From NCBI GenBank assembly GCA_965221775.1, contig CBDCSU010000006.1:1664001-1728000 (forward strand): 64,000 nucleotides of DNA, given 5' to 3'. The notes under the pieces were generated by a model. It searched no databases. It saw nothing but the letters and a program-made list of their open reading frames with translations, and was not told the origin of the DNA. Below, piece after piece: positions 34,668 through 37,769 of this stretch. Source of the stretch: Candidatus Latescibacterota bacterium (GTDB lineage Bacteria; Latescibacterota; UBA2968; UBA8231). How positions within the stretch are numbered: the first letter of the stretch is position 1; each line of letters opens with the position of its first letter. The translations under genes and the position numbers were made by a program.

Positions 34668-37600
34668 ATGGCGACCGCACCGTCCAACCCGTGGCACAAG
34701 GCGTCCTTCGACGAATTCCTGCACCGCCGCCTTCCCGAGTTGCTGGCCGCACGGCTGGGGGTGACCACCTGCCGCGCCGCAGGGGCCGGCGGTCACGCCT
34801 GCCGGATCGTCCTCGGCGGGCGTTCCGCCGAGGGGGACTTCGAGGTCGAGTACGACGGGCTGCCCGCACCGGACGAGGAGGGCGTCTTCCGGTTGCCGGG
34901 TTCCCCGGACCCGGACGGCGGGCCCCGCCTGCCGCCCCCGAGGACGTACCACGGGGGGGAGCGCGAGCCCTCGGGCGAAGTCGAGCTGGTCGTGCTGCCC
35001 GTGGCCGACCGGGACGACCTGGCCGAGGCCCGAATCGACTGTCTCGGCGACCGGCTCTCGACCTTCATCGAGTCCCGCCTCGGGGAGGTCCCCGGCCACA
35101 CCCCCCTCGACGGGTCCCTCCTGCGGACCCTGGCGCCTCTGAAGGACTGGTTCCACTCCTTCCTGGCCTCCTGCGGCGAGCGGCTCGACGACACCAACTG
35201 GCTGTCCCGGTCCGCGCACCTGCGCCGGATCCTGGTCCCGGACCGCCAGGAGGTATTCACCCCCGGCCACTTCGGCCGCACCTGCCCCTTCGAGACCCCG
35301 GAGGGACCGAACATCGGCCGCGTCCTGACGATCTCCCGGGGCGCGGAGATCCGCGGCCGCCGGCTGGTGATCGTCGACGCGAAGCCCGCGGAGGGACTGG
35401 GCATGTCCAGCGCATGCATCCCCTTCCTCGAGCACGACGACGGCAACCGCGTGCTCATGGGCGCCAACATGATGCGCCAGTGGCTGGCGCCCGCCGAGAG
35501 AGAGCCGGCCTTCGTGCGGACCGGCCTCGAGCCGCGGGCGCCGGACTTCTGGTGCGGCCGGAACCTGCTCACGGCTCTGCTCTCGTGGGACGGGGACGCC
35601 TTCGAGGACGCCGTGCTGCTCAGCCGGTCCGGCGCCCGCAAGCTCGCCTGCCCGGAGCCCCTCGAGCCCGGCGACAAGCTCAGCAACCGCCACGGGATCA
35701 AGGGCGTCGTGTCCCGGGTGGCGCCCGACGAGGAGATGCCGCGGCTGCCCGACGGCACCCCCGTGGAGCTGGTCTTCAGCTTCTCCGGCATTCCGTCCCG
35801 CTGGGTCATGGGGCTGGTCCGGGAGGCCGCCCTCGGACACGCGGCTCACCTGCGGGGGGAGCCCGCCGTCGTGCCCCCCTTCAAGGCGCCTTCCGACGAG
35901 CAGTTGCGGAACCTGCTTCAGGGCAGCGGCCTGCGCGCCGACGGCATGACCACGCTGACCCTCGACGGCACTCCCCTGCGGCGGCCGGCCACGGCCGGAT
36001 CGGTCTACTGGGGCTGCACCGTGCATCGCGCTCGCCCGAAACTGAGGGCCGCCGTCCACCCCGACGACCGGGGCCAGCGCCTGGGGGAGATGGAGGTGCG
36101 GGCCCTGGCCGAGGCCGGGGCGCCCGCGGTGATCCGGGAGCTGACCAACACCTGCTCCAGCCAACGCGGCGACGCCGGTTCCCTGGCCGAGAGGGCCGCC
36201 GCCGGACCGGTCGAGCCGGCGAGCACCCCCTCTCCCGCCTTCTCGGCCCTGGCGGCGGGTCTGGCGCAGGCCGGAATCCGCGCCGAGGCCGGCCCCCGGG
36301 GGGTCGCCTTCCGGTTGGAACCACCCCGGGGGCCGACGCTGTCCCTGGCCGCCGGCGTGCCCCACCCCTGGTTGCCGGGGAAGACCCTGTCCGAGGTCTG
36401 CGCAGCCGAGGGGGCCGCCGGATATCCCGAGGTCCTCGCCGCCAACGGCAGGCTCGCCCGCCTGCCGAAGGACGGGGCTCCCGAGCCCCTGGCAGCCGCG
36501 GCTCTCGACGATCTGGCCGCCGCTGTCTCGGACCTGTACGACGGACTGGCCGCCGCGCCGCGGCTGGGGCGGGATGGGAATGTCCTCTTCAGCGGCCGTG
36601 CGGTGATCGTCCCCGGGGGCGATCTGCCGGCCGACCGGCTCGGCCTCCCGGCGGAGATGGCCTGGAGCCTCTTCGGGCCGCTGGTGGCCCGCGCGCTGGG
36701 GGATCCCGAAGCGGTGGGGCAGCGCTCCACCGAGGCCGAGGCCGCCCTCGCCGCCGCCATGGAGGCCCACTGGGTCATCCTCGGCCACGCTCCATCGGTC
36801 AGTCCCACGGCGATGCTGGCCTTCCGGCCCCTGCCGATCCCGGGCCACGCCATCCGTCTCTGCCCCCTGGCCTGCGGCCTGTTGGACGCCGATTTCGACG
36901 GCGACCAGGCGGCCGTCTTCCTGCCTCTCACGGAGGCGGCTCAGCGCGAGACCCGCGAGCGGCTGTCCATCGCCGGCCACCTGGCCCGTGACCCCGGCCT
37001 CGTGGAGGACCTCTTCCCGCGCATGGACGCCCTCTTCGGGCTGGCCTGCCTCAGCCGCTCGGCAGCGGGCCGGAAGGCGATTACGCAAGCCGCCGGCCGG
37101 GAGCCGAACCTCGAGGGCGGCCTCCTCACCCGCGAGGCGGCGGCGATGCTGCTGCGGGGTGTCCTGACCGACGAGGGGGAGCAGGCGGCCCTGGGCGTGG
37201 CCGCGGAACTGATGCGGTTGGGGTTCGAGACGGCCCGCGCGGAGGGAGGCTCCGTGGGGCCCTTCATCGGCAGCACCCTCGAACTGCCCGTCCCCCCGGG
37301 GGAGGACGACGCGCCGCAGTGGCAGGCCTGCACGGAGGAAGCCCGGGCGATCGTCGCCGGCTTCCGCGACTACGACGACCACGACCTGGGGGCCGCCGCC
37401 CTGCTGTGCCACAGCGGCGCCCGGGCCACGGTCCATCAGCTCACCACCCTGGTGGGGCCGGGCGGACTCGTTCGCGACGTCGAGGGCCGGGTCCTCGGAG
37501 TCGCCCGCTCCTGGCGGGAGGGACTGACCGCGCGGGAGGTGCTGGCCCGGGTCGTCGGCGCCCGCCGCGGCCTGTTCCGCGTCCTGACGGAGTTCGGATC

Positions 37601-37769
37601 CCTCGGCCGGGAGCGGTCCGGGTCCGGGCCGGAGGGGTTCGGCGTCCTGGCCCGGGCCCGCCGGGTCGAGCGCCCGGGCCTCGTCTTCGCGAGGGCTGCC
37701 CTCAGGGGCGAGGTCGATCCCCTGGAAGACGAGCAATCGCGGCTGCTGGTCGGACTGTCCAGGCCGTGA
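34668..37769 (+). CDS. Miniaturised single-chain RpoB-RpoC (beta-beta') RNA-polymerase-like protein, 1033 aa
   Basis: Collinear beta motifs ([60 protein letters not shown]) followed by beta' motifs (FSGRAVI, GLPAEMA, ADFDGDQ, SGAR, REGL, GARRGL). Confidence 0.92.
   Translation: [1033 protein letters not shown]

Follow-up and report, generated by a model that had tools for sequence, protein, structure and literature searches.

A single-chain mini RNA polymerase derived from beta and beta', predicted to lack a trigger loop and encoded beside an ECF sigma factor in a Latescibacterota genome

Genes and features of the cassette

The stretch of DNA analysed here, hereafter the window, comprises 64,000 nucleotides (nt) of a Candidatus Latescibacterota bacterium (contig CBDCSU010000006.1, positions 1,664,001 to 1,728,000). 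It carries a two-gene cassette made of a sigma factor gene of the extracytoplasmic function (ECF) type and a gene for a small, single-chain RNA polymerase (RNAP), called the mini polymerase in the following. An earlier sequence-only reading had been concerned with 37557-37769(+), which is an uninterrupted translation and encodes the final 70 residues of the open reading frame (ORF) 34668-37769. The features are collected in Table 1. Residue numbers are counted from nt 34662, so the true protein number is the given value minus 2.

Table 1. Positions of the cassette features and of neighbouring genes in the window
Feature	Position	Strand	Basis and remarks
Mini RNA polymerase gene, fused beta::beta'	34668..37769	+	Start ATG 34668, stop 37769; 1033 amino acids (aa); Pfam and NCBIfam
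Beta-like half, residues 3-547	34668..36302	+	Spans beta from N- to C-terminus, without flap; structural alignment
Clamp helices, coiled coil, residues 588-629	36423..36548	+	Helices 588-603 and 608-629 in the model; profile alignment to beta'
ADFDGDQ catalytic Mg-binding loop, residues 743-749	36888..36908	+	Conservation of D744, D746 and D748
Shortened bridge helix, residues 957-985, 29 aa	37530..37616	+	DSSP on the model; hidden Markov model (HMM) alignment to beta' GARKGLADTALRTADS(GY)
Gly/Ser/Pro linker, residues 986-994	37617..37643	+	Coil with lowered model confidence (pLDDT, defined in the text) of ~71; in place of F-loop, trigger loop, jaw and lineage-specific inserts
Three-helix C-terminal module, residues 995-1031	37644..37754	+	Counterpart of the beta' C-terminal conserved region (switch-1/clamp anchor)
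ECF sigma-70 family factor, 201 aa	34060..34665	+	Stop TAG 34663-34665; Pfam and NCBIfam
ECF-type promoter, putative	34017..34042	+	-35 TGAACC 34017-34022, 13-nt spacer, -10 CGGTGTC 34036-34042
PQQ/BamB-like beta-propeller gene	32700-34019	+	4.2e-30; apparent signal peptide
SPFH/Band-7 genes, tandem pair, with the 188-aa ORF that follows them	37855-39718 and 39722-40288	-	1.3e-32 and 3.2e-36 for the two SPFH genes

In the mini polymerase a beta part is followed by a beta' part in one chain, and the whole is roughly a third as large as the canonical pair. Its Pfam matches are Rpb2_3 at residues 175-229, Rpb2_6 at 333-450 (E 6.2e-27), a weak Rpb2_7, and Rpb1_2 at 702-766 (E 8.9e-14), while Rpb1_3, Rpb1_4, and Rpb1_5 give no match at E<=1. 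The NCBIfam models for rpoB, rpoC, and fused beta/beta' all match, and all remain far under their cut-offs (163.5 bits against 801 for rpoB, and 100.4 against 963.5 for rpoC_TIGR). The hallmarks of a two-barrel RNAP are present, namely a beta' barrel with the DxDGD Mg-binding loop (ADFDGDQ), a beta barrel with the GDKxxxRHGxKG motif, and a bridge helix between the barrels, which is shortened to 29 residues and weakly conserved. The same genome (96.8% complete) has ordinary rpoB and rpoC genes on contig C4 with open frames of 1312 and 1389 aa, and PF04998 (Rpb1_5, from bridge helix to trigger loop) matches only this canonical rpoC.

The partnership with a sigma factor is the most consequential result of the analysis and formed no part of the sequence-only reading. 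The sigma gene ends 2 nt ahead of the polymerase ATG, and a GGAGGAGG run, which serves as a ribosome-binding site, lies in the last sigma codons, 8 nt before that ATG. The sigma protein has the ECF layout of regions 2 and 4 only in about 200 aa, with Sigma70_r2 at 23-90 (1.8e-14), Sigma70_r4_2 at 135-187 (2.2e-12), and Sigma70_ECF (8.4e-05) in Pfam, and it scores 89.9 bits (E 1.3e-25) against a cut-off of 42.9 for the NCBIfam model sigma70-ECF TIGR02937. In the genomes of relatives, a sigma homolog with 44-93% identity is found upstream of the polymerase on the same strand in 12/12 loci. Among these 12 and the metagenome loci taken together, 44 include 650 nt or more of DNA ahead of the start of the polymerase. 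In 35 of the 44 the sigma is encoded on the same strand no more than 150 nt away, and in five more the distance upstream is 157-1689 nt. These sigmas form a coherent family with a conserved linker between region 2 and region 4. Across 33 loci the cassette has no third conserved gene and no co-transcribed anti-sigma, the mini polymerase being the only conserved neighbour of the sigma. From this gene arrangement, the polymerase gene is predicted to be co-transcribed with a dedicated ECF sigma.

The putative promoter ends 17 nt before the sigma ATG. Its -35 element overlaps the stop codon of the upstream PQQ-propeller gene, the TGA being the first three bases of the element. The pattern GAAC-N16-G[TC]GTC, with a spacing of always 16 nt, is present upstream of the sigma gene in 30/31 loci, in comparison with 0/31 on the reverse strand and a mean of 0.145 in shuffles, and in most loci 17-45 nt separate the end of the motif from the point at which the sigma match begins. 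The strict motif has 2 hits in the window's own genome and 2 in the control. With one mismatch allowed there are 11 hits against 2 in the control, and all ten extra sites are located inside long open frames. The counts in five relatives are near the control level. Judged by these motif searches, the cassette itself appears to be the only recognisable regulon member of this sigma. A site outside the cassette that matches the pattern, GAACGAG[CT]AAGCCGCGCTCGGTGTC, is common to two related genomes (G035:C1:1091109-1091133 and G036:C1:1506300-1506324), and it could be either conserved coding sequence or a genuine second promoter.

Retained and lost elements of the polymerase

The AlphaFold2 model of the mini polymerase, built from an 85-sequence alignment, has a mean predicted local distance difference test score (pLDDT) of 94.2 and a predicted template modelling score (pTM) of 0.92. 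Residues 1-547 superpose on whole beta/Rpb2 chains, with the best match to 8i23_C (Z 29.6, root-mean-square deviation (rmsd) 2.7, 518 residues, chain 20..1165). The beta' half, residues 548-1035, was modelled separately with a pLDDT of 87.4, and its best match is 6psq_J (Z 30.3), in which 468/488 residues are aligned and model residues 1..488 correspond to Escherichia coli 20..1360. The rmsd of 8.9 in this second comparison is ascribed to domain orientation. The identity to bacterial chains is 27-30%, in comparison with 22% to Rpb2 of RNA polymerase II, and the best 50 PDB entries in each structural comparison are cellular beta or beta' chains. The models thus indicate that almost all residues have a beta or beta' counterpart, and that the protein is a core-only subset with no new fold.

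Both barrels, the fork loop, and the funnel are retained in the structural alignment. The clamp helices, which in canonical RNAP are the docking site for sigma region 2, are retained as well, with the E. coli beta' match of the profile alignment beginning at residue 266, and an N-terminal beta' motif (ELAxPVxHxW-like) is also kept as a weak match. The flap that belongs to canonical beta (rpoB) was not found in the mini polymerase. Profile positions 258-295 align to 8i23_C 757-794 and positions 304-517 to 931-1158, and the ~136 residues of 8i23_C between 794 and 931 are represented by eight profile positions only. This missing stretch is presumably the flap, together with the flap-tip helix on which sigma region 4 docks. 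In the window, the deletion site falls at 35640-35690 (residues ~328-336). In the beta' profile alignment, the clamp helices are followed by a gap in which the rudder and part of the switch-2 loop are lost. The pattern of loss is selective, in that these two elements and the flap are cleanly gone and the clamp helices are kept.

At the C-terminus, the region up to and through GARxGL aligns in the profile search against PDB with the start of the beta' bridge helix (GARKGLADTALRTADS, then GY). In the model, the helix begins 9 residues before GARRGL and extends 14 residues beyond it. The sequence-only reading had called the bridge helix truncated; the shortening to 29 residues stands, and the helix does not end after GARRGL as had been thought. 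The canonical bridge helix has ~35-37 residues, and by this length the modelled helix is about two turns shorter than canonical and is not a stub. Only 9 residues of coil separate it in the model from the C-terminal module, the helices of which lie at 995-1001, 1005-1015, and 1024-1030 by DSSP. With no trigger-loop-like element in the predicted structure, the F-loop, trigger loop, jaw, and any insert appear to be absent, and the earlier claim that the trigger loop and jaw are missing was borne out by the model as well as by the lack of an Rpb1_5 match. Supply of a trigger loop in trans is not indicated either, given that the cassette has no third conserved gene and the genome has no second ORF with Rpb1_5.

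The same reading had proposed that a Gly/Ser linker leads directly to the C-terminal clamp segment of beta'. In the profile search against PDB, the last ~30 residues align to 8i23_D 1136-1166 at 2.7 bits only. A profile of the last 46 residues gives no RNAP in PDB, only chance matches (profilin, Csf3, and an NDH subunit, E 0.9-1.8). In the structural alignment, rows that end at model residues 473, 475, 480, and 483 correspond to positions 1343, 1345, 1350, and 1353 of E. coli beta', and the alignment of the C-terminal module stops at 1343-1361 of that chain. For 8i24_D, the partner of model residue 480 (R1027) is residue 1162, which is the register predicted by the weak HMM alignment. Since the structural and HMM alignments share their register, the C-terminal module is assigned to the C-terminal clamp region of beta', in agreement with the proposal.

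Conservation and distribution of the family

A word-indexed search finds 420 homologs, and among the 120 listed most have 1000-1090 aa and all are unnamed or called hypothetical. The closest relative among the matches listed has 1033 aa and 98% identity. The few source names among the listed homologs are Gemmatimonadota, Chloroflexi, and Hydrogenedentes, and the taxonomic range beyond Gemmatimonadota rests on these names and on the cluster labels of one homolog. An exhaustive search of 50%-identity representatives gives 389 proteins at E<=1e-30. In the full-length members among the listed matches, the alignment stops at query residues 1031-1033, near the end of each match.

Conservation was counted in an alignment of 85 full-length members with 32-84% identity to the protein encoded in the window, and the layout is common to all 85, well in excess of what chance would give. 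The distance from the GARxGL column to the VLARAxR column is 24 residues in 52/85 members and 23 in six, including the window protein, with a range of 20-38, and the tail past the final VG has 0-13 residues. Because linker length and tail are so narrowly fixed across homologs, the deletion endpoints are non-random, and the deletion boundaries are shared. The Asp triad is kept (D744 and D746 83/85, D748 82/85), as are the beta-side catalytic residues (R343 85/85, K339 79/85 plus five Arg, H344 and K347 81/85 each), and the NMxRQ and fork-loop PxEG positions are kept in 80-84/85. The C-terminal module is among the best-conserved parts, with A1012 in 85/85, A999, L1021, and G1031 in 84/85, R998 and P1005 in 83/85, D1019 in 82/85, and R1001 in 72/85. 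The bridge helix is among the worst-conserved parts (G966 45/85, L971 54/85), and its later positions have no majority residue. Such free evolution of the bridge helix may reflect relaxation after the coupling between bridge helix and trigger loop was lost.

Against two congeners, the ratio of nonsynonymous to synonymous substitution rates (dN/dS) comes to 0.36 and 0.38 over the gene, with values of 0.44 and 0.28 over its last 70 codons. An uninterrupted copy is found in 64/168 Gemmatimonadota genomes (19/52 high-quality genomes, 15/49 genera), none of the matches in these 64 genomes has an internal stop, and the copy number in Gemmatimonadota carriers is usually one. One carrier, G107, has two full-length copies, C1:1427411-1428859 and C1:3370322-3371728 (E 1.2e-124 and 7.0e-82). 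The common layout, the conserved C-terminal module, the lack of stops, and the dN/dS values agree with the earlier suggestion that the domain-level deletions are under selection and did not arise by random decay. The layout without a trigger loop is the selected architecture of a large family. A pseudogene or relic was rejected in view of the conserved length, the lack of stops, and the conserved catalytic residues.

Stand-alone ORFs that match only the C-terminal part of the mini polymerase also occur, at L106:7879-8679(-) (genome G030), L133:619-1311(+), L175:5183-5635(+), and L114:4732-6447(+). They start at about residue 805, 845, 883, or 482 and reach the end. In L132-134, L175, and L114, C-terminal ORFs directly follow a sigma gene or sigma fragment, and the L133 sigma carries an in-frame stop. 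These ORFs may have arisen by decay of the cassette, or they may represent a short form that still functions. A look-up of the homolog P0008 in the Atlas places it in clusters that are unnamed or generically called DNA-directed RNA polymerase family. The Atlas also has larger fused Rpb2_6 and Rpb1_2 clusters of 1330, 1453, 1609, 1625, 1675, and 1787 aa, and three of these have Rpb1_5 in 91-97% of members. The larger fused clusters are possible candidates for trigger-loop-bearing intermediates between the canonical and the mini forms.

Since the genome-contig search by full-length alignment gave only canonical rpoB/rpoC loci (24-38% identity), C-terminal patterns were used instead. With these patterns, an IMG/VR scan gives 21 pattern matches and no relatives. 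PADLOC has no family for the mini polymerase or the sigma, and PHROGs gives generic RNAP-beta and sigma families only. The IMG/VR, PADLOC, and PHROGs scans thus give no indication that the family came from a phage or a known defence system.

The cassette follows the PQQ-propeller gene, and an Arg/Pro/Gly-rich extension of that ORF back to 30717 looks like an artefact of an open frame in high-GC DNA. The two SPFH genes converge on the polymerase gene, and a 188-aa ORF follows them on the same strand. The propeller gene and the SPFH pair are conserved in same-genus loci only. DNA nearly identical to 34060-37769 occurs in runs of seven studies that are mostly labelled sponge metagenome, and the host organism is probably sponge-associated. 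In the sponge metatranscriptome X20, a 1070-nt contig with ~92% identity extends over 33912-34987, across the sigma gene and into the 5' end of the polymerase gene, and short pieces lie also on 35310-36428. These contigs are a weak hint of expression in a relative, as the library could contain DNA, and gaps in their coverage of the gene carry no meaning.

Possible function and comparison with known systems

The reading that appears slightly more probable than its negation is that of a single-chain, core-only RNAP derived from beta and beta', active without a trigger loop and using its own ECF sigma. It is favoured because the active site and the clamp helices are conserved, the two genes are translationally coupled, and the complex prediction gives a weak pass. 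The mini polymerase would then be catalytically active although it has no trigger loop, in the manner of YonO, and would probably be less accurate and have no Gre-type cleavage. It would pair with the ECF sigma encoded 2 nt upstream, which would dock on the retained clamp helices, and both proteins would be expressed from an autoregulated TGAACC-N13-CGGTGTC promoter.

The complex of the sigma with mini-polymerase residues 240-1035 was predicted in three runs, which give values of 0.51, 0.50, and 0.51 for the interaction prediction score from aligned errors (ipSAE), the best of three controls being 0.01. The pLDDT of the partner is 64-65, and the runs agree in at least 42% of contacts. In the calibration, the mark is reached by 116/157 solved complexes and 2/215 mismatches, and scores of 0.60 or less, such as the present ones, come from only 18 of those 157 solved complexes and from both mismatches. 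The complex prediction thus lends weak support to binding of the sigma by the mini polymerase, and the pass may stem from likeness, as sigma-core complexes have been solved already.

Deletion of the trigger loop slows canonical RNAP by orders of magnitude. From this the sequence-only reading had concluded that the protein is unlikely to be a processive transcriptase, and it had favoured a decoy. By analogy, this slowdown need not transfer automatically to the mini polymerase, because YonO, which has no trigger-loop homology, is reported to be processive and efficient. According to the available part of its description, YonO of the SPbeta prophage has no detectable trigger-loop homology and is a DNA-dependent RNAP of high processivity that equals multisubunit RNAP in efficiency, though it is less accurate and shows no cleavage (PMC5467207). 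The conservation of the active site, the YonO precedent, and the dedicated ECF sigma, with which the gene is predicted to be co-transcribed, speak against the earlier conclusion.

Several results weigh against an active polymerase that uses its own sigma. The flap, which is the canonical dock of sigma region 4, is deleted while the -35 element is strongly conserved, and this combination fits at least as well with the host core and this sigma reading the cassette promoter. No credible second promoter site is seen in the window's own genome, and the motif counts in five relatives are near the control level, so no target of such a holoenzyme is visible. The sequence-only support for homology of the C-terminus is not significant, and a dN/dS of ~0.37 indicates purifying selection, yet only moderate constraint. 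Moreover, two of the 44 loci (L114 and L175) have a sigma followed by a C-terminal polymerase fragment only, two (L138 and L139) have no sigma, and several of the 44 are near-identical, so the counts over these 44 loci overstate independence. In L138, a 143-aa ORF (2196-2627, +) just upstream of the intact mini-polymerase gene resembles a small IS-type transposase on inspection of its sequence.

The strongest alternative is that the sigma, together with the host core, switches on its own operon, and that the mini polymerase is the sole product of this regulon and acts without the sigma. Its products would be, for example, short, primer-like, or regulatory RNAs, or copies of single-stranded or RNA templates as made by QDE-1-type enzymes. 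This alternative is unlikely, at about one chance in a few, and it accounts for the full -35/-10 promoter in all but one of the loci although the mini polymerase has no flap to position sigma region 4, for a promoter motif that is essentially unique to the cassette in its own genome and near control in five relatives, and for the conserved catalytic residues. It does not account for the clamp helices, which are kept though most peripheral elements are shed, or for the tight translational coupling that is typical of 1:1 partners, and the complex prediction, at 0.51 against 0.01 for the best control, lends weak support to contact between the two proteins.

A decoy or anti-sigma is improbable. 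In this case, the mini polymerase would mimic core RNAP and sequester its sigma or DNA in a negative feedback, and RNA synthesis would be irrelevant. Anti-sigma genes usually lie downstream of an autoregulated ECF sigma and are co-transcribed with it, which is the position of the mini-polymerase gene, and the lack of another conserved partner gene, the retained clamp helices, and the absent trigger loop all suit such a role. In contrast, the Asp triad (82-83/85) and the beta-side catalytic residues (79-85/85) are conserved down to 32% identity, and the two-barrel core is retained in full together with the fork loop and the funnel, none of which a sigma trap would need. Going by these conserved positions, a pure decoy is unlikely. 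There is similarly little to recommend the view that the trigger loop is reduced and not absent, with the helix G-V-L-A-R-A-x-R...P-G (residues 994-1006) as the base of the first trigger helix joined to the C-terminal region and R998 and R1001 contacting the incoming nucleoside triphosphate: the helix resembles the start of the trigger-loop motif by inspection, with no statistical support, and both arginines are well kept in the family, but from P1005 on the structural and HMM alignments agree without gaps on the beta' C-terminal region, which places 995-1004 just before it, and the 46-residue profile matches no RNAP.

An active polymerase with its own sigma could be taken further. It is conceivable, though rather doubtful, that the cassette is a two-gene orthogonal module in which an ECF-type sigma and a single-chain RNAP, independent of alpha and omega and devoid of flap and trigger loop, initiate at specific promoters, as a chromosomal second transcription machine in many free-living and symbiotic bacteria. 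Just as tentatively, the proposal has the mini polymerase elongate RNA with no recourse to the trigger-loop mechanism, which is regarded as essential in enzymes of the beta/beta' type.

When compared to canonical beta and beta', the mini polymerase has both double-psi barrels, the bacterial-type ADFDGDQ and GDKxSNRHGxKG motifs, the fork loop, NMxRQ, the clamp helices, the funnel, the start of the bridge helix, and the C-terminal region, and 518 and 468 residues superpose with Z ~30 each. In contrast, the canonical pair has ~2,700 aa in two chains in the same genome, whereas the mini polymerase is one chain of 1033 aa that has no flap, rudder, F-loop, trigger loop, or jaw, and its switch-2 loop is shortened.

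The nearest architectural analogue, as far as the available parts of two papers describe it, is K2ORF6p of the yeast cytoplasmic linear plasmid pGKL2, a virus-like element (VLE). This protein is a beta-then-beta' fusion of 982 aa in which the lid, rudder, and rim helices are lost and most conserved beta regions are kept (PMC2919709, PMC6211774). The C-terminal beta' regions are on a separate 132-aa subunit, K2ORF7p, with trigger helices, trigger loop, and switch 5 listed in the figure legend (PMC2919709, PMC6211774). In the same parts, Sykora et al. call the fusion of conserved beta/beta' regions unique, the origin of the VLE enzyme is placed near poxviruses, and the enzyme works with a capping enzyme and a helicase (PMC2919709, PMC6211774). 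The likeness lies in the one-chain beta-then-beta' fusion of ~1000 aa (1-547 beta and 548-1035 beta' in the mini polymerase). The mini polymerase differs in that its C-terminal region is in cis, with no conserved small-subunit gene in 33 loci. Further differences are its bacterial type and its pairing with an ECF sigma.

YonO, QDE-1, crAss-like gp66, and P23-45 gp64/gp96 are, in the portions of the literature available, likewise single polypeptides of ~100 kDa with two barrels. However, this group shares few residues with beta/beta', whereas the mini family aligns along nearly its whole length, and no sigma partner is seen in those portions for the group, unlike for the mini polymerase. YonO is phage-borne, whereas the mini family has no IMG/VR relative by the C-terminal patterns. 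The non-virion RNAPs (nvRNAPs) of the jumbo phages phiKZ and AR9 are alike in being derived from beta/beta', in lacking alpha and omega, and in having a dedicated promoter-specificity subunit. According to the accessible parts of their descriptions, they differ in being phage-encoded, in consisting of four or five polypeptides, and in having a specificity subunit other than a standard ECF sigma. No description of a sigma-linked bacterial fused mini RNAP was found in the literature searched, and subscription-only papers may bear on its novelty. A term search of the ECF reclassification paper and of part of its supplement, the portions available, found no mention.

To our knowledge, textbooks describe a single RNAP core in bacteria, and they give the trigger loop a central part in the catalysis, fidelity, and pausing of all beta/beta'-type enzymes. 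The mini family is a natural and widely conserved derivative of beta/beta' with clean losses of the trigger loop, jaw, flap, and rudder, in which the active site and clamp helices are kept. Because 27-30% identity to the bacterial chains is retained, it can be aligned with them residue by residue. If the enzyme is active, it would be the closest available natural experiment on a minimal sigma-dependent RNAP core, it would show how a true beta/beta' scaffold catalyses the reaction when the trigger loop is gone, and it would offer a compact chassis of ~1230 aa in total for orthogonal transcription. The absence of the trigger loop and the diverged rifampicin-cluster region raise, as an idea only, the question of insensitivity to RNAP-targeting antibiotics. 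The mini polymerase may thus be a second, stripped-down transcription enzyme and not a broken gene.

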